Source of the DNA: a virus
Lineage: Duplodnaviria; Heunggongvirae; Uroviricota; Caudoviricetes
DNA: 55,913 nt
Direction: 5' to 3' (one strand)
Virus record (IMG/VR): IMGVR_UViG_2778261121_000001
Location: 1 to 55,913 of that record
Shown here: one piece after another, positions 1,586-36,416 of the stretch
Numbering within the stretch: the first letter of the stretch is position 1
Layout of the letters: every line of letters begins with the position of its first letter
Notes under the pieces: model-generated
The model's database searches: none
Told to the model about the DNA's origin: nothing
What the model saw: only the letters and a program-made list of their open reading frames with translations
Program-made: the position numbers and the translations under genes

Positions 1586-3619
1586 TTACTTAACTTGGTG
1601 GCCTGGTTTAGCACCAGCATCCGGGCTTAACAGGAAGATATCTTTCCCACCGGGGCCAGCAGCCATCACCATACCTTCGGAGATACCGAAGCGCATTTTA
1701 CGCGGAGCCAGGTTAGCCACCATAATGGTGTGACGACCAATCAGTGCCTGTGGGTCTGGATAAGCAGAACGGATGCCTGAGAAGACATTGCGTTTTTCAC
1801 CACCTAGATCCAGCGTCAGACGCAGCAGTTTGTCAGAACCTTCAACAAACTCTGCGTTTTCAATCAGCGCCACGCGCAGGTCAACTTTGGCGAAGTCGTC
1901 AAAGGTGATAGTTTCCTGAATCGGGTCGTCAGCCAGTGGGCCAGTTACCGGTGCGGCTGTGGCTTTCACTTCTTCTTTGGATGCTTCCACCAGTGCTTCA
2001 ACCTGCTTCATATCGATGCGGTTATACAGTGCCTTGAACGGATTCACTTTATGGCCCAGCAACGGTTGCTGGATGCCATCCCAGGTCAGTTCTGTATTCA
2101 GGAATGCTTCTGCACGTTCAGTCAGTTTCGGCAGTACCGGCTTCAGGTACGTCATCAGCACGCGGAACAGGTTAATGCCCATAGAGCAAATCGCCTGCAG
2201 ATCGGCATCGCGTCCTTCCTGCTTCGCCACCACCCACGGAGCCTGTTCATCGACATAGCGGTTAGCCAGGTCAGCCAATGCCATGATTTCACGGATAGCT
2301 TTACCAAATTCACGGCTTTCCCATGCTTCGCCAATCACTTCAGCGGCATCAGTAAAGGTTTTGTACAGTTGCGGGTCAGCCAGTTCGCTTGCCAGCACGC
2401 CGTCAAAACGCTTGTTGATAAAGCCTGCATTACGGGAGGCCAGGTTAACCACTTTGTTCACGATATCGGCATTCACGCGCTGAACGAAATCCTCCAGGTT
2501 GAGATCGATATCATCAATGCGCGAAGAGAGTTTCGCAGTGTAGTAGTAACGCAGGCTGTCAGCGTCAAAATGATTCAGCCAGGTGCTGGCTTTAATAAAG
2601 GTGCCGCGAGACTTGGACATCTTCGCGCCGTTCACCGTCACATAGCCGTGAACAAACAGGTTGGTCGGCTTGCGGAAGTTGCTGCCTTCCAGCATGGCAG
2701 GCCAGAACAGGCTGTGGAAGTAAACAATATCTTTACCGATGAAGTGGTACAGCTCGGCGGTGGAGTCTTTCTTCCAGTATTCATCGAAGCTGGTGGTATC
2801 GCCGCGCTTGTCGCACAGATTCTTGAAGGAACCCATGTAGCCAATCGGCGCGTCCAGCCAGACGTAGAAATATTTGCCCGGCGCGTTCGGAATTTCAAAA
2901 CCGAAGTAAGGCGCATCGCGGGAGATATCCCACTGTTGCAGGCCGGATTCAAACCACTCCTGCATTTTATTTGCCACCTGCTCCTGCAACGCACCGCTGC
3001 GGGTCCATGCCTGCAACATTTCGCTGAAAGAAGGCAGATCAAAGAAGAAGTGTTCGGAATCACGCATTACCGGGGTAGCGCCAGAAACCACCGATTTCGG
3101 CTCGATCAATTCAGTCGGGCTATATGTTGCGCCGCAGACTTCACAGTTATCGCCGTATTGATCTGGCGCTTTACATTTCGGGCAGGTGCCTTTTACAAAA
3201 CGATCCGGCAGGAACATGCCTTTTTCCGGGTCGTACAACTGAGAGATAGTGCGGTTTTTAATAAAACCGTTCTCTTTCAGGCGAGTATAGATAAGCTCAG
3301 ACAACTGACGGTTCTCTTCGCTGTGCGTCGAGTGATAGTTGTCATAGCTGATGTTAAAGCCTGCGAAATCAGTCTGGTGTTCCTGACTCATTTCGCCAAT
3401 CATCTGCTCCGGTGTGATACCAAGCTGCTGTGCTTTCAGCATGATCGGCGTACCGTGGGCATCGTCGGCACAGATGAAATTAACCTCGTGGCCGCGCATT
3501 CGCTGGTAACGAACCCAGACATCAGCCTGGATGTGCTCCAGCATATGGCCGAGGTGGATTGAGCCGTTAGCGTACGGCAGCGCGCACGTCACCAGAATTT
3601 TCTTCGCGACTTGGGTCAT
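1586..3619 (-). CDS. metG: methionine--tRNA ligase
   Basis: Translation from [29 protein letters not shown] to the C-terminus matches E. coli MetG almost residue for residue; start set at the MTQ methionine rather than the longer track ORF. Confidence 0.95.
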
Positions 3620-3776
3620 AGTAGGCATTACTTCTTTGTAGTGAAAAGGGGCTTGATAGTAACAAAATGGCCTTATGTCTGCCATGTGATAACAGCATTT
3701 CTCATAAATGATTAAATGTCGTAGCTGGAGTACACTACAAGGCGACAATTGCGCAAATTAAAATAAAGGAGACGGG

Positions 3777-4877
3777 ATGAGCGAGTCCAAATCGCCGGAT
3801 GCCCTGAGAGCAATGGTAGCCGGTACGCTGGCTAATTTTCAGCACCCAACCCTGAAACACAACCTGACTACGCTTAAAGCGTTACACCATGTTGCGTTGA
3901 TGGATGACACACTGCATGTCGAACTAATCATGCCTTTCGTGTGGAATAAGCCTTTTGAAGACCTGAAAGAGCAATGTAGTGGTGATCTGCTCCGTATCAC
4001 TGGCGCAAAGGCTATTGACTGGAAGCTGTCGTACAACATTGCCACGCTTAAGCGCGTCAAAAACCAACCAGGCATTAATGGCGTTAAGAATATTATCGCC
4101 GTAAGCTCAGGCAAGGGCGGTGTAGGCAAATCGTCCACAGCAGTAAACTTGGCACTGGCGTTGGCTGCTGAAGGTGCGAAAGTTGGTATTTTGGATGCCG
4201 ATATCTACGGGCCATCAATTCCAACCATGCTGGGCGCGGAAAACCAACGTCCAACCTCACCAGACGGTACTCACATGGCACCTATTATGTCTCATGGCCT
4301 GGCAACCAATTCTATTGGTTATCTGGTCACCGACGACAATGCGATGGTGTGGCGTGGACCGATGGCTAGCAAGGCGCTGATGCAGATGTTGCAGGAAACA
4401 CTGTGGCCTGATCTGGACTATCTCGTTCTCGATATGCCGCCGGGCACTGGTGATATTCAATTGACGCTGGCGCAGAACATTCCTGTAACGGGTGCTGTGG
4501 TGGTAACTACGCCGCAAGATATCGCGCTGATCGATGCGAAGAAAGGCATTGTGATGTTCGAAAAAGTCGAAGTGCCGGTACTGGGTATCGTCGAAAACAT
4601 GAGTGTGCATATTTGCAGTAACTGCGGTCATCACGAGCCAATTTTCGGCACCGGTGGCGCAGAGAAACTGGCCGAGAAATACAACACGCAGTTGTTAGGC
4701 CAAATGCCACTTCATATCTCACTTCGTGAAGATCTGGATAACGGAACACCAACCGTTATTAGTCGTCCAGATAGCGAATTTACGGCTATTTATCGTGACC
4801 TCGCAGATCGCGTTGCTGCCCAAATGTATTGGCAAGGTGAAGTAATACCTGGCGAAATCGCATTCCGCGCAGTGTGA
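3777..4877 (+). CDS. apbC: iron-sulfur cluster carrier ATPase ApbC/Mrp
   Basis: Walker A SSGKGGVGKSS plus CxxC near the C-terminus; strong similarity to E. coli Mrp; divergent from metG as in enterobacterial chromosomes. Confidence 0.93.
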   Translation: MSESKSPDALRAMVAGTLANFQHPTLKHNLTTLKALHHVALMDDTLHVELIMPFVWNKPFEDLKEQCSGDLLRITGAKAIDWKLSYNIATLKRVKNQPGINGVKNIIAVSSGKGGVGKSSTAVNLALALAAEGAKVGILDADIYGPSIPTMLGAENQRPTSPDGTHMAPIMSHGLATNSIGYLVTDDNAMVWRGPMASKALMQMLQETLWPDLDYLVLDMPPGTGDIQLTLAQNIPVTGAVVVTTPQDIALIDAKKGIVMFEKVEVPVLGIVENMSVHICSNCGHHEPIFGTGGAEKLAEKYNTQLLGQMPLHISLREDLDNGTPTVISRPDSEFTAIYRDLADRVAAQMYWQGEVIPGEIAFRAV

Positions 4878-4914: not shown

Positions 4915-5304
4915 CTACATCACGGGACAATCATCAAACTCGCCACTTCTTGCGTCGTTGATAATGTGAGTGATCACACCAAACACGGCATTGCTGCCCG
5001 TGCATCCATCGTCATCCTTTGGCAATGCTTCCTTCTTACCGGTTCTTAAATCCTCCAGATGCTGACGTGGGTACTTCCGGTATCTTTTTACGCGATATTC
5101 CCCATCCAGAGCGCATACAAGCAGAGAACCATCAACCGGGGTAAGTGAGGAATCGACCACCAGCAATGCACCCTGTAATATTCCCTCACGATGATGACTA
5201 TCAGCTGCCCTCATGAAGTAGGTCGCTGAAGGATGTCTAATTATCTGCTGATCAAGAGAAATACGGCTCTCAGCATAATCCGCCGCAGGAGAAGGGAAGC
5301 CCAT
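4915..5304 (-). CDS. UmuD'-like protein (pre-processed UmuD homolog, HumD-like)
   Basis: Begins GFPSPAADY, the position of the UmuD autocleavage product, and aligns with the UmuD C-terminal domain; LexA box immediately upstream. Confidence 0.7.
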   Translation of the reverse strand: MGFPSPAADYAESRISLDQQIIRHPSATYFMRAADSHHREGILQGALLVVDSSLTPVDGSLLVCALDGEYRVKRYRKYPRQHLEDLRTGKKEALPKDDDGCTGSNAVFGVITHIINDARSGEFDDCPVM

Positions 5305-5320
5305 AATACTCGCCTCTTAG

Positions 5321-5340
5321 TACTGTATACACATACAGTG
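5321..5340. promoter_or_regulatory. LexA (SOS) box
   Basis: TACTGTATACACATACAGTG fits CTGT-N8-ACAG, 17 nt upstream of the 4915..5304 start codon. Confidence 0.65.
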
Positions 5341-5528
5341 TATATTGAAGCTATATATTTTTGAACTCTATCTCTTAAAAAAGATGTTAATAAGATGCTA
5401 ACTATTGAAAGGCATAAATATATACAATTCAAACAAACGTTATTTTTAACAAATTTTTTCTTCCCATTGACTTTTTCGAACGCCTTGTCAGGTCTAAAGT
5501 GCGCAGAAGTCACTTTTTCCTTCCTGAG

Positions 5529-5537
5529 TTATCCACA
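5529..5537. promoter_or_regulatory. DnaA box (TTATCCACA)
   Basis: Perfect consensus 9-mer in an AT-rich ORF-free region; the same TTATCCACAGGC 12-mer recurs at 35078. Confidence 0.4.
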
Positions 5538-5635
5538 GGCTTATGCACTTGCATGAAAAATCTATTCACACTATCTTAATTCGCAAGACACTGATGTTGC
5601 AGTATTGAGGGTATGTTGGGTTAAAAATAGACATT

Positions 5636-5666
5636 AAAAAGCCCAGTTGACTAGGCTGGGCTTTTT
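5636..5666. terminator. bidirectional intrinsic terminator-like hairpin
   Basis: AAAAA-GCCCAG-loop-CTGGGC-TTTTT. Confidence 0.5.
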
Positions 5667-5966
5667 AAAAGGAAACAGAGTTTGCGGCTCTGTTCCTGAG
5701 CCATAAGTATCTGGCGACTGAATTAAGATTAACCGAATGTACTGGATTCATCAAGAAACGTTGAGTGGTCATACTAGGTAATAATGACCATTTACTAAAC
5801 ATCGTTGTTCTCAAAGAAGATTTAAGTCCAGGTTTTTGGTGACTCTAAAACCTTACCTTAACTCGAAATCGTGCCGTAAGTATCTGGCGACTACAGATAT
5901 TGCAACTGCAAAGGCAAGCCCAAAGGTATTTGCAGCTAGGCGCGATAAAACTAAGTGAGGCCTGTT

Positions 5967-6050
5967 ATGGTTAACTTACTGTTCAAAATCGTGCCGCCGA
6001 TGTTCGCGATTATCAAAGCGATCATTGAGTACGTAAACCAGCGTCCATAA
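5967..6050 (+). CDS. candidate small hydrophobic peptide (27 aa, MVNLLFKIVPPMFAIIKAIIEYVNQRP)
   Basis: ATG with GAGG 8 nt upstream; followed directly by a strong plus-strand terminator; below the ORF-track size cutoff. Confidence 0.25.
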   Translation: MVNLLFKIVPPMFAIIKAIIEYVNQRP

Positions 6051-6064
6051 CGCTAGTTGCTACA

Positions 6065-6096
6065 GGCCCCATCAAGAGCATGGGGCCTCTTTATCG
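6065..6096 (+). terminator. intrinsic terminator
   Basis: GGCCCCAT-loop-ATGGGGCC followed by a T-rich run. Confidence 0.55.
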
Positions 6097-6105
6097 TACT
6101 ATTGC

Positions 6106-6771
6106 TTATTTTTTACGGACTGAGTTGTTCACTGCTCTGGCAATTTTCTCCCGCAATTGCTGCGCTCCGTGGTACTGAACCGCAATATCCCGCAACTCGT
6201 TCACCAGTTCTCTAATCTGGTGATCTTTAAGCTCATTATTTGGGTGATGGGTAACAACTCTGGTTAATTCACCCTTGTCTTTTGCTCTTACGTATGCAGC
6301 TCTTGTGCATTCGACCCATGTATTACCGCCTACATTAACTTCGTAGATTAGGCTGGACTTATCTATCAATTCGGAACAAATACGGGCCGTGGTCTGGCAA
6401 CTAGAGCATTCGCAGTTATCGCGGAAACCGTGGTCTACTGGCTTCGGTTTCACATCATCAACTTTTTCTACCCTATTGGAATTTAAATACTTCGAAGCCT
6501 TGCTATGCCAATCGCTGGTTTTAGGATCTTGTCCATCCATCAAACGCCAGGCTTCAGCGATTAACTCATAACTAGTGACTGTAGCTTCCTGCGCATCACC
6601 AATAAGTCGTGTAATCTCTCTTTCAAGCCGACCGCCTAGCTCTGTTTTAGTGCAATGTTCTGACCAATCGCCAGCCTCAAGCAGCGCGAGAATGCTTAAA
6701 ATATCGTCCAATAGATCAGTGGTATTATCGACTTCCTTCTGAAACTCACCGGCTACTGATTTATGCATCAT
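6106..6771 (-). CDS. hypothetical protein (221 aa)
   Basis: ORF in track; first of a tightly packed run of minus-strand genes with overlapping stop/start codons. Confidence 0.5.
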   Translation of the reverse strand: MMHKSVAGEFQKEVDNTTDLLDDILSILALLEAGDWSEHCTKTELGGRLEREITRLIGDAQEATVTSYELIAEAWRLMDGQDPKTSDWHSKASKYLNSNRVEKVDDVKPKPVDHGFRDNCECSSCQTTARICSELIDKSSLIYEVNVGGNTWVECTRAAYVRAKDKGELTRVVTHHPNNELKDHQIRELVNELRDIAVQYHGAQQLREKIARAVNNSVRKK

Positions 6772-25542: not shown

Positions 25543-26685
25543 TTACAGGTCTGCAAACTGGCTTAGAGAAGCCTTATCCACGGTAGAATCGATCTGACCT
25601 ACCAGATATGTGCTTTGCTCTGCCTCTTGTGGTGCAATTTGCAGTGTGTCGGTTAACAACCACTTGTTCATCCAGACCAGCGGATCTGTGGTAACTTCTG
25701 GAAATAAAGCCTTCAGGCCAAGACGATTCATAGCCAGATTGGTGCGGTATTTTACATAGGTCTTCAGAATATCCGCGTTTAAACCAATCATCGAACCGTC
25801 TTTGAAGAGATAGTCTGCCCAGTTCATTTCTTGTTCGGCGACTGATTTCATGGTGTCGTAAATGACGTTTTCTTCATCAGCAGCAATCTCTTTCCACAAT
25901 AAGCCTTCGCGACCGGTACGCATGAAGCGGATCATGCGTTCAGTTCCTTCGCAATGCAGAGCTTCATCACGGGCAATAAAGCGCATAATTTTGGTGTTAC
26001 CCTCAAGCAACTTCCGTTCGCCAAAGGCAAACGTACATGCAAAACTTACATAGAAACGGATCGCCTCAAGCGCATTAATGGACACCAACGTGCGGAAAAG
26101 CTGACGGTGCAAAGGGTATGGCTCCCAGCCATATTCATTTACGTACAGACGTTCAAACTCTTTCTCACCTAACGACTGGCGCTCGCAGGTCATCCCATAA
26201 AGCCTGTCATATTCAGCAGAGATACTGATCGCTCGGTTGATGATTTCTTCATCCGTAACAATACCGTCAAAAACAATACTCGGATCGTCCACCATGCCAC
26301 GAATAATGTGGGTGTAGCTGCGGCTATGGATAGTCTCAGAGAAAGACCATGTTTCAACCCACGTTTCCAGTTCAGGAATAGAGATAAGCGGCAGAAGCGT
26401 TGCATTTGGGCTACGTCCCTGAACTGAATCGAGTAACGTTTGATAACGGAGATTGCTCAGAAAAATGTGACGTTCGTGGTCCCGCAGCTTCGTGTTGAAG
26501 TCGATACGATCACTCGAAATATCAACTTCTTCCGGCCGCCAGAAGAAAGACAATTGACGTTCAATCAACTTTTCAAAATCACGGTATTTTTGCTGATCGT
26601 AACGTGCCACGTTGACAGATTGTCCGAGGAACATAGGCTCTTTGGTTGCATCATTAGCACCCAAACGGAACGTTGAATATGACAT
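25543..26685 (-). CDS. nrdB: ribonucleotide reductase class Ia beta subunit
   Basis: 380 aa; resemblance to NrdB recognised by eye; conserved start context and 5'-leader motif. Confidence 0.85.
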
Positions 26686-26785: not shown

Positions 26786-29101
26786 TCAGATTTTGCAGGC
26801 TCCGTCGCACTCATCTTCTGGCTCGACGGCTACAGCTTGCGTAAGTGGATTCTGCGCTTCGTCGTCATCACGCTTTCCTGCACCATCTCTGGTGTTGTGG
26901 TAGTAAAGCGTTTTAACTCCCATCTTGTAGGCGAGAAGCAAATCTGACAGTAGCGTCATCATTGGGACTTTATCGCCTTCAAAGCGAGAAGGGTCATAGT
27001 TGGTATTGGCTGAAATAGCCTGGTCAAAGAACTTCTGGATGATCGCCACCTTTGTCAGATAGCCGCGGTTGTCCGGCATATCCCACAGGTATTCATACTG
27101 TTCCTTCAGTTTTTCAAACTCAGGCACGACCATCTTAACGATGCCGTCCTTAGAAGATTTCACCGACACCGGTCCACGAGGCGGTTCGATGCCGTTGGTG
27201 GAATTAGTGATCTGGCTGGAAGTCTCGCATGGCATTTGTGCCGTCAGTGTGGAGTTGCGAAGGCCGTATTTTGCAATACGTTCACGCAGTTCTTCCCACG
27301 GCATCTTTAACTCAAAGTTGGTTTCGCCACTTTCGTCTAATGAAGAACGGTAATGGTCGATCGGCAACTGACCAATTGCGTACTTGGTCTGCTCAAACCA
27401 GTCACACTCACCTTTTGCTTCAGCAAGTCGGCAGCTGGCATCAAGAAGGTAATACTGGATAGCTTCGAACGTTTCATGCACCAGTTTATTGCCAGCGGTA
27501 TCAGAATAATGAACGCCATTCTTTGCCAGGTAATAAGCAAAGTTGGTTACACCAATTCCCAAGCTACGACGAGCTTTGGCAGGCACTTCGGCTGCCTCCA
27601 TCGGATAGTCTTGATAATCCAGTAACGAATCCAGTGCAGCAACGGCATAGAACGCCACCTCTTTAAGAGACTCCAGTGAACGGATGGCTCCGAGGTTAAA
27701 AGCGGATAAAGTGCATAGCGCGATCTCACCGTTCGGGTCGTCGGTAAATGCCAGTGGACGAGTGGGTAGAGTGATCTCCATGCACAGGTTTGACTGGCGA
27801 ACAGGTGCAAGAGCAGGAATGAAAGCGCCATGCTCGTTAATATGATCGACGTTCGCAATATAAATTCGGCCCGTGGACGCTCGTTCCTGCATCAGAGATG
27901 AGAACAGCTCAATGGCAGGTACTGACTTCTTGCGAATTGAATCATCGGCTTCGTATTTATGGTACAGCTTTTCAAACAGCTCCTGGTCTGTGAAGAAGGC
28001 TTCGTACATATCAGGCACATCATGCGGGCTGAACAGAGTGATGTTCTCGCTTCTGACGAGTCGACGGTACATTAGACGGTTACTCATGACGCCGTAATCA
28101 AGATGGCGAACGCGGTTTTCATCAATACCACGGTTATTTTTCACCACCAGCAGACTTTCAACTTCAAGATGCCAGATCGGGTAAAACGCTGTTGCTGCGC
28201 CACCACGAACACCACCTTGCGAACAAGATTTAACAGCCGTCTGGAAATGCTTCAGGAATGGAATAACTCCAGTATGGGTGGCTTCACCATTGCGGATCTC
28301 GCTGCCCAGCGCACGGATACGGCCAAAACCAATACCAATTCCAGCACGACGTGAAACGTAGTCGATAATTGCGGCTGAAGCTGCACTAATCCCTTTCAGA
28401 CTATCGCCAGACTCAATCAGCACACAACTGGAGAACTGACGGGTTGGAGTACGGACGCCGGCCATGATTGGTGTGGGCAGAGACAGTTTGAACGTACTTG
28501 TAACGTCATAGAAACCTTTGACCATCTCCATACGTGTTTTGCCAGCGCAGTCGTCTTCCCAATTCTGGAACAGACACATGCCTACCAGCATATAGATATG
28601 TTGCGGCCCCTCATGAATCTCACCAGTAACACGGTTTTGAACGAGGTATTTGCTTTGCAACTGCACCGTAGCTGCATAGCCAAAAAGATCGTCACGTTTC
28701 GGCTTAATGTAATTGCCGAGTTCTTCGATCTCTTCAAACGAATAATGTGTCAGCAAATCCTTGTCATAAACGCCCTTGTTAACGTTCTTGACAATATGTT
28801 GGTAGAAGTTCGGATAGTCGTAACGACCGAAGGCATCTTTGCGGATTTTAAAAATGTTCAGGCGGGCAGCCACCTGTGAGTAATTTGGTGCTTCTGGTGA
28901 GATCAAATCAGCGGCAGATTTAACCAAAGCCTCATGCAACTGGCTGGTGGTAATCCCATCAAAAATGCTGGCCGCAGCTCCCATTGCTACAGCGGATGCG
29001 CTTACACCACGAATGCCTTCTACGCCATACATTACGACGCGGTTGTATTTTTCTTCGGATAACGGCTCTGTTTGGCCGTTACGTTTTACGATGCTTATCA
29101 T
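26786..29101 (-). CDS. nrdA: ribonucleotide reductase class Ia alpha subunit
   Basis: 771 aa aligning with E. coli NrdA through the active site and C-terminal CxxC tail. Confidence 0.9.
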   Translation of the reverse strand: MISIVKRNGQTEPLSEEKYNRVVMYGVEGIRGVSASAVAMGAAASIFDGITTSQLHEALVKSAADLISPEAPNYSQVAARLNIFKIRKDAFGRYDYPNFYQHIVKNVNKGVYDKDLLTHYSFEEIEELGNYIKPKRDDLFGYAATVQLQSKYLVQNRVTGEIHEGPQHIYMLVGMCLFQNWEDDCAGKTRMEMVKGFYDVTSTFKLSLPTPIMAGVRTPTRQFSSCVLIESGDSLKGISAASAAIIDYVSRRAGIGIGFGRIRALGSEIRNGEATHTGVIPFLKHFQTAVKSCSQGGVRGGAATAFYPIWHLEVESLLVVKNNRGIDENRVRHLDYGVMSNRLMYRRLVRSENITLFSPHDVPDMYEAFFTDQELFEKLYHKYEADDSIRKKSVPAIELFSSLMQERASTGRIYIANVDHINEHGAFIPALAPVRQSNLCMEITLPTRPLAFTDDPNGEIALCTLSAFNLGAIRSLESLKEVAFYAVAALDSLLDYQDYPMEAAEVPAKARRSLGIGVTNFAYYLAKNGVHYSDTAGNKLVHETFEAIQYYLLDASCRLAEAKGECDWFEQTKYAIGQLPIDHYRSSLDESGETNFELKMPWEELRERIAKYGLRNSTLTAQMPCETSSQITNSTNGIEPPRGPVSVKSSKDGIVKMVVPEFEKLKEQYEYLWDMPDNRGYLTKVAIIQKFFDQAISANTNYDPSRFEGDKVPMMTLLSDLLLAYKMGVKTLYYHNTRDGAGKRDDDEAQNPLTQAVAVEPEDECDGACKI

Positions 29102-29118
29102 GTATCACCAAATAAAGA

Positions 29119-29140
29119 GGGCCACTAAATATAGTGGCCC
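29119..29140 (-). promoter_or_regulatory. hairpin in the nrdA 5' leader
   Basis: GGGCCACT-loop-AGTGGCCC followed on the minus strand by UCUUUAUUU; lies between the operator-like motif and the nrdA start. Confidence 0.4.
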
Positions 29141-29174: not shown

Positions 29175-29744
29175 TCAAATGAGAGACTTAAGAACATCGC
29201 GCACCTGGCGGAACTGATCTGTTTGCATACCGGTATGGATGGCAGCCACCGCATCAGCCAAATGTTCGTTTTTGTTCACGAGAACATCCTGTCCAGATTG
29301 CTTACGACGCAGCCACGGTGCTTTAGGGTGTTTTTTCGTAGCCCACTGGATAATCTCTTCTTTCGATGTAGTAAGTTTATTGCCGACAAAATGCTTGATT
29401 TCGTTTGGAGTAACCTGGATCAATGGCTTATCCACACACGCAAGTACACCGATACAAATACCGTAAGACGTCTGCGAACGAGAGTTTTGGCTCCCAACCG
29501 GTAGCTCACAAAAAACCATATTTGCCTTATCAATGATTGGCTTCGCAACACGCCATATTTCACTGGCGCGGCGCAGATCGTCACTGTTCACACGAACGGT
29601 CTTTTTGTTACTCCCCGCTTTAGTCTCAACAAGAGTAAGGCCGTGAATCTCAAGTTCGTCCGTCTCAAGGTCTAAAGTGCCCACAGCAAGCCCAAAGTTG
29701 CTCATTGAGGGATCAACACCAACTACGCTGATTTTTTTACTCAT
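29175..29744 (-). CDS. RuvC-like Holliday junction resolvase (putative)
   Basis: 189 aa; N-terminal VVGVDPS resembles the RNase H-fold resolvase start; placed in the recombination cluster. Confidence 0.5.
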   Translation of the reverse strand: MSKKISVVGVDPSMSNFGLAVGTLDLETDELEIHGLTLVETKAGSNKKTVRVNSDDLRRASEIWRVAKPIIDKANMVFCELPVGSQNSRSQTSYGICIGVLACVDKPLIQVTPNEIKHFVGNKLTTSKEEIIQWATKKHPKAPWLRRKQSGQDVLVNKNEHLADAVAAIHTGMQTDQFRQVRDVLKSLI

Positions 29745-34617: not shown

Positions 34618-34718
34618 AATCGTTTTTTCAGTAGTTATTGGCCGATGCTACGATAACTCATTAGGCATACCTTAATCTGCATTTGCCTGTTTTACTTATC
34701 CCAGTTATCCACTGGATA

Positions 34719-34776
34719 GATCCAAATAAGAGATCCCAAGTAAGATCAAATAGAAGATCCAAAGAGATCCCCGATC
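34719..34776. promoter_or_regulatory. cluster of six GATC sites
   Basis: GATC at 34719, 34732, 34744, 34756, 34766 and 34773 within 58 bp. Confidence 0.5.
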
Positions 34777-34817
34777 GCCTCTAGCCGTTGCGGTTACTGG
34801 TCTGAAAGGGTGTTGCC

Positions 34818-34920
34818 ATCCACTATGGAGAGCAAAGAAACCTCTGTAGAGAGCTGAATAACCGCTATGAAGAGTAAAACAACCACTCTGGAGAGCTGTA
34901 TATATCCACTGTAGAGAGTA
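34818..34920. repeat. iteron array A (5 copies, ~21-bp period)
   Basis: Repeats of (A/T)NCCACTRTRGAGAGC at 34818, 34839, 34860, 34881 and 34905. Confidence 0.7.
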
Positions 34921-35077
34921 GAGCACATTGTCTTTTATGGATAACTTAATGACTTAATTCTTCATTAACATACTGATATACATAGATATATTTTAAACTC
35001 TACTCTTAGTCATGATTCTTATGTCCTTAAATATCCACAGAAGAGTAGAGTTACCTGTTCTTGAAATCCTCTGATTT

Positions 35078-35086
35078 TTATCCACA
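35078..35086. promoter_or_regulatory. DnaA box (TTATCCACA) in the AT-rich spacer between iteron arrays
   Basis: Perfect consensus 9-mer with AT-rich DNA and GATC sites on either side. Confidence 0.5.
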
Positions 35087-35198
35087 GGCCCGATCCAGTA
35101 ATTCAGATCACAAAGAGAACCAAAGAGACCCATAAAGACCCAATAAGATCCCCGCCCACCTCAAACCGTTGCGCCATCTGCCTTCAGACATGATCGAT

Positions 35199-35320
35199 AT
35201 CCACTATAGAGAGCGAATAATCCACTATAGGGAGCAAAGCAACCACTATAGAGAGGAGAAAAACCACTATAGACGGTAGGATAACCGCTGTGATGAGTGC
35301 TACTATCCACTGTAATCAGC
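35199..35320. repeat. iteron array B (6 copies, ~21-bp period)
   Basis: ATCCACTATAGAGAGC-type repeats at 35199, 35220, 35241, 35263, 35284 and 35305, directly upstream of repA. Confidence 0.7.
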
Positions 35321-35360
35321 AAAGGCCACCAAAGCCGTCGAATAACAAGAGACATTTGGA

Positions 35361-36416
35361 ATGAGCGAAAACGGCAATAAAAACATAGCGATCGTTGAAG
35401 CATTTTCAGAAACAGATAAAAAGACAGGCGAAGTTGTTACGTTGGTTCCTAACACTAATAACACTGTTCAGCCTGTTGCTTTGATGCGTCTGGGCCTCTT
35501 CGTTCCGACGCTGAAATCGACATCCAGAGGAAGAAAGGGGCAAATGGTCTCTATGGATGCCTCTGCTGAACTCAAACAGCTGTCTCTGGCAAAAGCCGAA
35601 GGGTACGAAGACATAAGGATCTCTGGCCTTCGGCTTGATATGGATAACGACTTTAAAACGTGGGTGGGAATAATCCACGCGTTTGCCAAACACAAGGTCG
35701 TTGGCGATACTGTCACGTTGCCGTTCGTTGAGTTTGTAAGGCTGTGTGGCATTCCGACCGCCAGGTCATCAGCGAAGTTACGCAAACGCCTGGACAGTTC
35801 GCTAAGCCGTATTGCCACAAATACCATCTCGTTCCGTAGCAAAGGCTCTGATGAGTTTTACGTAACGCATCTTGTGCAAACGGCAAAATATAGTGTCAAG
35901 CACGATACGGTCGAACTGAAAGCAGATCCCAAGATTTTCGAACTCTACCAGTTCGACAAAAAGGTTCTTCTGCAACTCCGGGCTATAAACGAACTCTCAA
36001 GAAAAGAATCCGCTCAGGCGCTTTATACTTTTATTGAAAGTTTGCCGCCTGATCCGGCACCAATATCACTAGCCCGTTTACGCGCCAGACTTAATCTGAC
36101 AAGTCGCACTATTACTCAGAATGCGACGGTAAGAAAGGCTATGGAACAGCTGCGAGAGATAGGATATCTCGATTACACGGAAGTTAAGCGCGGAAACTCG
36201 GTCTACTTCGTCATCCACTATAGGCGGCCAAAGTTACGCCAGGCACAAATATCAACAAAAATCGATAATGATGAGACGGAATATAGCCTCCCAGATGAGA
36301 ATCAAGATGACATTATCGACGTTGTGCCTGACGAAAAAGAAGGCAAAATGGTCATGTTGAGTAAAGAAGAACTGGCGCTTCTCGAAGAGTTGCGCAAGGC
36401 AAAGACTCGCAAATAG
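35361..36416 (+). CDS. repA: plasmid replication initiator (RepA-like, iteron-binding)
   Basis: 351-aa plus-strand ORF flanked by iteron arrays on both sides; family assigned from this P1-type arrangement, not from a sequence motif. Confidence 0.7.

Follow-up and report, generated by a model that had tools for sequence, protein, structure and literature searches.

The DNA analysed here is IMG/VR virus record IMGVR_UViG_2778261121_000001 at its full length of 55,913 nucleotides (nt), hereafter the window, and related Escherichia coli plasmids together with shared genes identify its element as an SSU5/pLF82-like phage-plasmid. We describe in it a spacer, 5305-6105, which holds a candidate small RNA (sRNA) gene and a divergent gene for a hydrophobic peptide of 27 amino acids (aa), probably a type I toxin-antitoxin module. 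The spacer lies between humD (4915-5304, minus strand), whose product matches Peptidase_S24, and an open reading frame (ORF) of 221 aa (6106-6771, minus strand); the leftward operon starts at 6771, to the right of the spacer. A preliminary description of this DNA had noted roughly 800 bp poor in ORFs at this place, and the gene list indeed contains none there; each feature that it listed proved to be present, at the positions given or a few bases away; nor is anything annotated inside the spacer in any E. coli, plasmid, phage or Citrobacter record inspected. The same description offered three explanations, namely a type I toxin/sRNA locus, an att scar or a replication-control region. The spacer consists of two separate pieces (Table 1): on the left, the LexA box of humD and a copy of the nrdA promoter, and on the right, the sRNA/peptide module.

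Table 1. Features of the spacer in window coordinates
Feature	Position	Strand	Basis or detail
LexA box TACTGTATACACATACAGTG (CTG-N10-CAG)	5321..5340	.	sequence reading; the homologous region of P1 has an annotated LexA site before humD
nrdA-promoter-like segment	5439..5577	+	83.6% identity over 139 bp to the ypaB-nrdA intergenic region; points rightward
Predicted short plus-strand transcript, ~80 nt	5584..5666	+	positions of the nrdA-like promoter and the shared terminator
Terminator hairpin common to two convergent transcripts (A5-GCCCAG...CTGGGC-T5)	5634..5668	.	inverted repeat
Candidate antitoxin sRNA, 86 nt	5634..5719	-	fold, covariation, conserved promoter and terminator
sRNA promoter	5726..5754	-	-35 TTGATG 5754->5749, 17-nt spacer, -10 TAATCT 5731->5726; predicted start A at 5719
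5' hairpin of the peptide mRNA leader (AGGTTTT-TGGTGACTCT-AAAACCT)	5830..5853	+	stem co-varies (A-U/G-C, U-A/C-G), 14 homologues
sRNA target site in the mRNA 5' untranslated region	5870..5893 (core 5873-5892)	+	RNAduplex and intermolecular covariation
Second leader hairpin (CTGCAAA...TTTGCAG)	5906..5935	+	RNAalifold consensus
Candidate type I toxin, 27-aa hydrophobic peptide MVNLLFKIVPPMFAIIKAIIEYVNQRP	5967..6050	+	ATG 5967, TAA 6048-6050, GAGG 5957-5960
Intrinsic terminator of the peptide mRNA	6064..6096	+	stem 6064-6088, 9 pairs (6 G-C), T-rich tail

The sRNA/peptide module and its homologues

Homologues of the module were gathered by BLAST searches for distant relatives and then with a pattern taken from the leader of the peptide messenger RNA (mRNA). 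The BLAST searches found the right half of the spacer in Citrobacter plasmids at about 68-76% identity. The pattern was the sequence of the second leader hairpin, whose own conservation is thereby selected for, and, being hairpin-like, it gave mostly chance matches when the genome collection was scanned; in all, the pattern yielded about 30 viral contigs of IMG/VR together with Citrobacter and Kluyvera genomes, which are the only real matches among the named genome records. From these, 26 distinct loci of about 560 nt align end to end with their parts in the same order: a hairpin whose minus-strand U5-6 is invariant, a co-varying second hairpin, repeat copy 1, a minus-strand promoter, about 60-95 nt of variable spacer, a 5' hairpin that co-varies, repeat copy 2, the second leader hairpin, a Shine-Dalgarno sequence, an ORF of 26-28 codons and a terminator.

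The candidate sRNA is read from 5719 to 5634. Its seed, at the 5' end (nt 1-24), lies within stem-loop 1; a second stem-loop (SL2), whose loop is CCGCAAA, and an intrinsic terminator follow. The predicted structure has three hairpins and an energy of -33.4 kcal/mol (z = -5.8), and in the RNAalifold consensus of 16 distinct homologues compensatory changes occur at 6 of the 24 pairs. R1, a covariance model built for this sRNA, scores 99 bits in the window and finds one strong copy per locus. The promoter is placed so that transcription would start at the last base of repeat copy 1, and its layout (TTGAAG/TTGATG-N17-TAAGCT/TAATCT/TAAGAT) is kept in 26/26 aligned loci with a spacer that varies in sequence. 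At the other end of the gene, the arms of the terminator hairpin (13 nt each, 5634-5646 and 5656-5668) are 100% complementary and flanked by A5 and T5. Because this hairpin is symmetrical it should act bidirectionally in the window, as the preliminary description had proposed. Among the homologous loci the U-tract serving the sRNA is invariant at U5-6 and the plus-strand tract varies from 1 to 5 U; in most loci other than the window the plus-strand side of the hairpin is without a U-tract.

The 27-codon ORF, which the preliminary description had already picked out together with the strong terminator that follows it, is preceded by a GAGG Shine-Dalgarno sequence six nt upstream of its ATG, and a Shine-Dalgarno sequence is present in all loci. 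In the peptide version found in the window, type A, the ORF has 27 codons in each of 11 distinct versions, with no insertions or deletions; the variable columns fall at codon positions 1, 2 and 3 in the numbers 13, 3 and 20, and the replacements are conservative exchanges among hydrophobic residues (I/V/L/M/F), a pattern that marks the ORF as conserved coding sequence. The best 19-aa Kyte-Doolittle window reaches 1.85 in the peptide of the window and 1.85-2.3 across versions, which is at the level of a transmembrane segment. No match to the peptide was found in Pfam, NCBIfam, PADLOC or PHROGs, and an exhaustive search against 1.84 billion protein representatives returned just two clusters, both labelled 'hypothetical protein' and both from virome assemblies; a full-text literature search for its motifs gave nothing relevant. 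In some loci a second peptide type, MFLLLLKLAHPVAVIIMTLLEYWKDR, replaces type A, and two loci hold both types in tandem. In these two (1653-1846 of L005, a Citrobacter portucalensis plasmid, and L078) the ORFs stand behind one leader, with type B (MQMLLLFLQLAHPVTVIVLTLWGFFKGR) first and a type-A-like ORF (MVTLLLKIVPPIIEIAMAVIDYLNQCL) second.

The leader of the peptide mRNA is predicted to be highly structured. Some 75 nt separate the target site for the sRNA from the Shine-Dalgarno sequence downstream; the site is partly presented in a hairpin, TATCTG-GCGACTA-CAGATA, whose stem co-varies (CACTG...CAGTG in L062). The second leader hairpin and an outer stem (5869-5875/5939-5945) form a three-way junction, closed by UCGUGCC/GGCGCGA, that encloses the target. 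The Shine-Dalgarno sequence itself is predicted to be mostly paired, with a probability of being unpaired of 0.02 in the window, and when the target site was forced open its predicted accessibility was unchanged in 13/13 loci, a result more in keeping with a standby site or with cleavage than with a switch by refolding. Upstream, a weak candidate for a sigma-70-like promoter ends 1-5 nt before the 5' hairpin in most loci, at a roughly consistent position, and downstream a hairpin with a T-run stands at the position of the terminator in all homologues.

Two further ideas about the leader were rejected. One was a structural switch in which binding of the sRNA frees GGCGCGAU (5939-5946) to pair with the copy of AAATCGTGCC in the ORF and so closes the ribosome-binding site. 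The minimum-energy fold of the window does pair GGCGCGAU with the 11-nt duplicate AAATCGTGCC; since a C x A mismatch stands at this point in other type-A loci and the accessibility of the Shine-Dalgarno sequence does not change, the switch finds no general support. The duplication behind this idea had been recorded in the preliminary description and is present as a 13/14 identity between 5863-5876 and 5983-5996, which by itself is borderline against chance. The other idea was a mok-like upstream leader ORF beginning in the target site; the window has AAG and not ATG at that place, and neither frame nor length is conserved. Seeds of the AATG type do hold an ATG in the target site, and in two IMG/VR contigs (L066 and L070) this ATG, within AATGTATCTGG, is in frame with the peptide ORF and gives rise to an annotated 56-aa 'hypothetical protein' (P0002).

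Of 5426 complete genomes of E. coli, 119 contain the 851-bp stretch around the spacer at 80-99.6% identity, and 110 of the 120 places are plasmids of about 100-120 kb; the module alone gives similar figures (115-119 genomes, with 106-110 of the places on plasmids of that size). The carriers include pLF82 of strain LF82, which has also been deposited as phage Cyrano and is 96.6% identical in this region, and they share metG, apbC and the humD/UmuD'-like gene with the window. In the window, metG (methionyl-tRNA synthetase) and apbC/mrp, both full-length and of host type, adjoin humD at 1586-4877, and RefSeq annotates both on related plasmids. The module also appears in integrated prophage contexts far from any replicon and, in one Citrobacter plasmid, near repB; it behaves as a mobile cargo gene ('moron') in unrelated contexts. 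One homologous locus (L062, 13350-13494) lies in a viral contig that also holds the SraC/RyeA-SdsR/RyeB sRNA pair (159 and 112 bits), so this copy of the module sits in a chromosomally integrated prophage.

Co-variation of the two repeat copies

The relation between the two genes rests on a direct repeat. The preliminary description had given it as 18 bp; a repeat is present, of which 16 nt are exact (TAAGTATCTGGCGACT, 5704-5719 and 5877-5892), and the 18-mer that had been noted contains one mismatch. Extended to 20 nt (5700-5719 and 5873-5892) the copies have a single A/G difference, and they are spaced 173 nt apart. Exact 16-mer repeats are expected by chance about 1e-4 times in 850 bp. The sRNA gene has copy 1 as its 5' end, and its transcript is therefore the complement of copy 2, which stands in the leader on the plus strand. 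The duplex between sRNA and target in the window is computed by RNAduplex at -38.5 kcal/mol, compared with -17.0 +/- 2.8 for shuffled seeds, and in 11/11 loci tested the cognate duplex spans 20-28 bp and begins at nt 1 or 2 of the sRNA.

For intermolecular covariation, nt 1-28 of the sRNA were concatenated with the target from 14 distinct loci and a helix of 24 pairs was evaluated. In this helix 96.7% of cells are paired and 10 of the 24 pairs have changes on both sides, whereas none of 500 shuffles attains any of the observed measures and sliding the partner by 1-3 columns lowers the pairing to about 30%. The seed variants changed in both copies include TAAGTATCTGGCGACT, AATGTATCTGGCGACT, ...GGCAGC, ...ATCCGG..., GTAAAACACTGGCGAC and ...GGCTACA; in one lineage, for example, both copies show GTAAAACACTGGCGAC in place of the GTAAGTATCTGGCGAC of the window. 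Where the copies differ within nt 1-20, every difference gives a G-U pair (15 cells at 4 positions) and none gives A-C. This is expected for a minus-strand sRNA acting on a plus-strand mRNA and for that choice of strands alone, not for the opposite one. The complementary stretch also stops exactly at the predicted +1 of the sRNA in every locus.

In the comparison with related elements that the preliminary description had suggested, both repeat copies thus proved to be present and to co-vary. The local rearrangement proposed there gives way to a functional reading, in which an antisense RNA gene begins with repeat copy 1 and its RNA targets copy 2 in the leader of the mRNA, and this assignment is strongly supported by the pattern of sequence change. 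The RNA pair exists as a conserved, structured and co-varying unit.

The nrdA-promoter-like segment and the question of replication

The left piece of the spacer accounts for the signal that resembled an origin. A perfect DnaA box (TTATCCACA) does lie at 5529-5537, as the preliminary description had it, and a second box, TTATGCACT, follows at 5541-5549. Both are kept in the alignment with the ypaB-nrdA intergenic region, together with a promoter consisting of a -35 TTGCAT (5549-5554), a 17-nt spacer and a -10 TATCTT (5572-5577). The intergenic sequence that matches 5439-5577 is present in 5426/5426 complete E. coli genomes, and the homology to the E. coli nrdA promoter ends at the -10. Since functional NrdR boxes 1 and 2 of nrdAB are situated downstream of the start site (PMC12176259), they are not part of the copied segment. 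The window has just a degenerate palindrome, ACACTGATGTTGCAGT; homologous loci outside the window carry good palindromes resembling box 1, such as CCCCTATATATAGTAT in L091.

A similar arrangement is known from P1-like phages. In P7, SJ46 and some P1-like records the segment 5303-5556 of the window is about 79% identical and lies next to humD, and the reference P1 genome has a shorter match (5454-5556, 76%). GenBank M95666 labels the matching P1 sequence 'nrdA-like promoter' and 'dnaA box' in the same orientation as the plus strand of the window; a full-text literature search for 'nrdA-like promoter' gave nothing relevant. As read from the sequence, the LexA box upstream belongs to humD, as it does in P1, and not to the sRNA/peptide module. 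The window differs from both nrdAB and P1 in what follows: its promoter leads, after about 60 nt, to the shared terminator and the sRNA/peptide module and not to nrd genes, and covariance model R1 finds no module downstream of the nrdA-like promoter in the P1 region examined. Downstream of that promoter and on the same strand, P1 has an unannotated, strongly hydrophobic 45-aa ORF, MTAFFQFLSAFLDAPVISQILAIILIIVLILLLRSVKNGIMHWLT (2886-3023 of L002, the reverse complement of NC_005856), which lies opposite the annotated upfM and the predicted promoters of upfM and could be a cis-antisense locus of type I-like character.

The association between a promoter of this type and the module is not restricted to the window. 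The 13 distinct loci inspected all have an nrd-type promoter upstream of the sRNA terminator and facing it; outside the window this promoter reads TTGTAC-N16-TAGAAT/TACAAT/TAAAAT, and behind it come a palindrome that agrees with NrdR box 1 of E. coli nrdAB at up to 15/16 positions and, in some cases, TTATCCACA. The same block (TTGTAC-N16-TAGAAT with NrdR-box-like palindromes) occurs in a chromosomal island of E. coli (L104, 2480-3794 of chromosome NZ_LT883142), where it is followed by a hairpin with a minus-strand T9 tract, an SL2-like hairpin and a 304-aa protein that has no Pfam or PADLOC match; blocks of the L104 type are found in 96 E. coli genomes. These arrangements suggest that promoter block and convergent RNA may form a reusable cassette ahead of different cargo genes.

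The short plus-strand transcript predicted from this promoter contains no ORF, and sRNA model R1 matches weakly over 5579-5668 (27.7 bits). An identical 10-mer, ATCTTAATTC, spanning the -10 and the discriminator, is common to the nrdA-like promoter (5573-5582) and the convergent sRNA promoter (5720-5729). At 5584-5605 the 5' end of the predicted plus-strand RNA resembles the sRNA seed: 14 of its opening 18 nt agree, a level borderline against chance, and the stem of stem-loop 1 is kept through a C-G to A-U change. This seed-like 5' end could reflect a paralogous second sRNA, comparable to agrA/agrB, or be a coincidence; the spot also aligns with the degenerate NrdR-box palindrome.

The replication region of the element lies elsewhere. 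Iterons, GATC clusters and DnaA boxes occupy 34650-35330, ahead of a Rep3-type initiator gene at 35361-36416. The iterons are about 16 nt long, resemble ATCCACTATGGAGAGC and form two clusters with stretches rich in AGATCC/GATC, and the DnaA boxes there are TTATCCACT near 34707 and TTATCCACA at 35078-35086. A third perfect DnaA box is at 29428-29436, so that the window has 3 perfect boxes where 0.4 are expected. The element also encodes a class I ribonucleotide reductase of its own (nrdA 26786-29101 and nrdB 25543-26685, both on the minus strand), with an NrdR-box-like palindrome, GGCCACTATATTTAGTGGCC, just upstream of the nrdA start (~29120-29139).

Known families and alternative explanations

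The layout of the module recalls that of several type I toxin-antitoxin families of E. coli. With tisB/istR-1, zorO/orzO and shoB/ohsC it shares a divergent antitoxin RNA without overlap with the toxin gene (here the sRNA at 5719->5634, its target at 5870-5893 and the Shine-Dalgarno sequence at 5957-5960), and also a short perfect complementarity in a long structured 5' untranslated region, far upstream of a sequestered ribosome-binding site. It has no sequence or model match to these families, the peptide is unrelated, and mRNA processing and a standby site are predictions here. The resemblance to dinQ/agrA-agrB, in the arsR-gor region of E. coli K-12, extends further: a 27-aa peptide with a single transmembrane segment; an sRNA gene upstream of the toxin gene in opposite orientation and without overlap; an sRNA that carries a copy of a segment of the toxin-mRNA leader and is built of a 5' pairing region, an internal hairpin and a terminator; and similar loops of the internal hairpin (GAGTTGGTGGCTC versus GAGTTTGCGGCTC). 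AgrB (RF02891) is also the sole Rfam model that touches the sRNA of the window, at 27.6 bits, under its gathering score of 40. Homology to dinQ/agrB was nevertheless rejected: besides this sub-threshold match, model R1 has no reciprocal match in the K-12 dinQ-agrAB locus, the DNA of the loci does not align, and BLASTP gives no alignment of the peptide to DinQ. The complementary stretch is about 31 nt in dinQ/agrB and 20-24 nt here, and the present module is carried by phage-plasmids and prophages. Complementarity of this length is in line with IstR-1, which has 21 nt, 18 nt being given as the lower limit for type I antitoxins (PMC4147584).

Matches to other Rfam models also stay under their gathering scores: OrzO-P (RF02083) reaches at most 33.3 bits, against 60, in one homologue only, and RNAI (RF00106) about 30-32 bits, against 47, in homologues, neither having a match in the window. 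A reading of the window sequence at 5720-5830 revealed no SOS/LexA box before the peptide gene of the kind seen at tisB and dinQ, no systematic LexA scan having been run on the window or the homologues; the one CTG-N10-CAG box read in the spacer is that before humD. Nothing relevant on type I toxin-antitoxin systems of phage-plasmids, SSU5-like or other, came from a full-text literature search. Taken together, these comparisons make it likely that the sRNA/peptide module is a new family of a known kind, type I toxin-antitoxin, outside every described family.

We have high confidence that a functional sRNA/peptide pair exists, and we consider it probable that 5634-6096 is a two-gene type I toxin-antitoxin module laid out like tisB/istR-1, zorO/orzO, shoB/ohsC and dinQ/agrB. 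The conserved parts of the sRNA, the co-varying repeats and the coding conservation of the ORF argue strongly for the first of the three options in the preliminary description. Several points weigh on the other side. The toxicity of the peptide and its repression by the sRNA are predictions; the peptide has no detectable similarity to any known toxin, and two central prolines and charged residues lie inside its hydrophobic stretch. No convincing promoter for the peptide mRNA was found in the window, where the best candidates agree at 6-7 of 12 positions or are poorly spaced. The loci were gathered with a pattern derived from the leader and represent one related lineage of mobile elements, not independent inventions. 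In principle gene conversion between two short direct repeats might also mimic the co-variation, an explanation disfavoured by the G-U-only asymmetry and the sharp boundary at the +1 of the sRNA.

The RNA pair might also be real and the peptide not a toxin. In that case the product would be a small membrane protein of the phage-plasmid, such as a modulator of host membrane proteins or an exclusion or lysis-timing factor, with its synthesis adjusted by an antisense sRNA. The comparative findings on RNA pair and ORF fit this equally well, and both the lack of similarity to known toxins and the two loci with different peptides in tandem would agree with it. However, the combination of a divergent sRNA that pairs through its 5' end, a long structured leader and a hydrophobic peptide of fewer than 30 aa is known in enterobacteria essentially from type I toxin loci (PMC4147584), and the module travels as a cargo gene in unrelated contexts; on balance we find a non-toxin peptide unlikely. 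A different objection concerns the source of the mRNA: transcription might start at the nrd-type promoter (5549-5577) and read through the hairpin at 5634-5668. In that event the sRNA would be a cis-antisense RNA within a leader of about 380 nt, with 5873-5892 as an additional site, and the system would still be of type I, controlled by DnaA/NrdR-type signals. The promoter that faces the sRNA terminator in all 13 loci, the plus-strand side of the hairpin that in most loci has no U-tract, the want of a strong internal promoter and the same promoter block before another cargo gene in the E. coli island all speak for this. Against it, the full plus-strand T5 of the window hairpin should make termination efficient, a co-varying second site of 20-25 nt would be redundant given a perfect duplex of 86 bp, and a conserved block stands just upstream of the 5' hairpin, where an internal promoter is expected. 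Read-through therefore seems to us quite improbable as the origin of the mRNA. That the spacer is a replication-control or origin-related region, or the scar of an integration or rearrangement, we regard as highly improbable, even with its perfect DnaA box, the AT-rich stretch at 5341-5440, homologous sRNAs that score around 30 bits as RNAI-like and one Citrobacter module near repB. The DnaA boxes belong to the 139-bp nrdA promoter copy and the true origin, with iterons and Rep3 initiator, is about 30 kb away, which is why the replication-control option is rejected. Moreover, 5300-6150 contains neither iterons nor att-like flanks, nothing supports an att scar, the RNAI scores are below threshold, and the module occurs in integrated prophages far from replicons.

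For the toxin-antitoxin module that we favour, we infer transcription, toxicity, repression and its mechanism, and a role in plasmid or prophage maintenance or in defence. The 86-nt sRNA would be made on the minus strand from its well-conserved sigma-70 promoter and end at the intrinsic terminator. The divergent plus-strand mRNA, with a 5' end at or shortly before 5830, would run to its own terminator and encode a single-pass membrane peptide of 27 residues. The first 20-24 nt of the sRNA would pair with the leader upstream of the sequestered Shine-Dalgarno sequence. Divergent antitoxins that target long 5' untranslated regions away from the ribosome-binding site block a standby site, make use of RNase III, or do both (PMC4147584), and by analogy with IstR-1 and OrzO the duplex would most likely block the region of ribosome standby or loading and/or trigger cleavage by RNase III. 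The peptide would be kept off as long as the element is present; once plasmid loss, stress or infection removes the short-lived sRNA, the peptide may be made and the membrane damaged.

A more speculative extension, which we hold to be possible though doubtful, makes the nrd-type promoter part of the module and so wires the toxin to the circuit that senses replication and deoxynucleoside triphosphate status in the host, through DnaA in the window and NrdR-like boxes in its relatives. Transcription from this promoter could read through into the peptide gene, or the convergent transcript, with its overlap of about 33 nt with the 3' end of the sRNA and the promoter 10-mer common to both, could act as an 'anti-antitoxin' or by transcriptional interference. 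If so, replication stress or nucleotide depletion, for example on infection by another phage, would release the toxin, and the module would be a counterpart, keyed to nucleotide supply, of the SOS-controlled tisB and dinQ.

To our knowledge, type I toxin-antitoxin loci are almost never annotated, and we know of just four E. coli chromosomal families in the divergent subclass with short complementarity, tisB, shoB, zorO and dinQ. The module described here would be a fifth such family, carried by mobile elements, namely Citrobacter plasmids, prophages and the SSU5/pLF82-like phage-plasmids, which occur in about 2% of complete E. coli genomes. The nrdA promoter copy explains away a misleading 'origin-like' DnaA box and points to a possible tie between toxin control and regulation of the ribonucleotide-reductase type. 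The co-varying pairs of seed and target provide a natural series for studies of antitoxin specificity, and the module itself is a candidate stability or defence determinant of these phage-plasmids.

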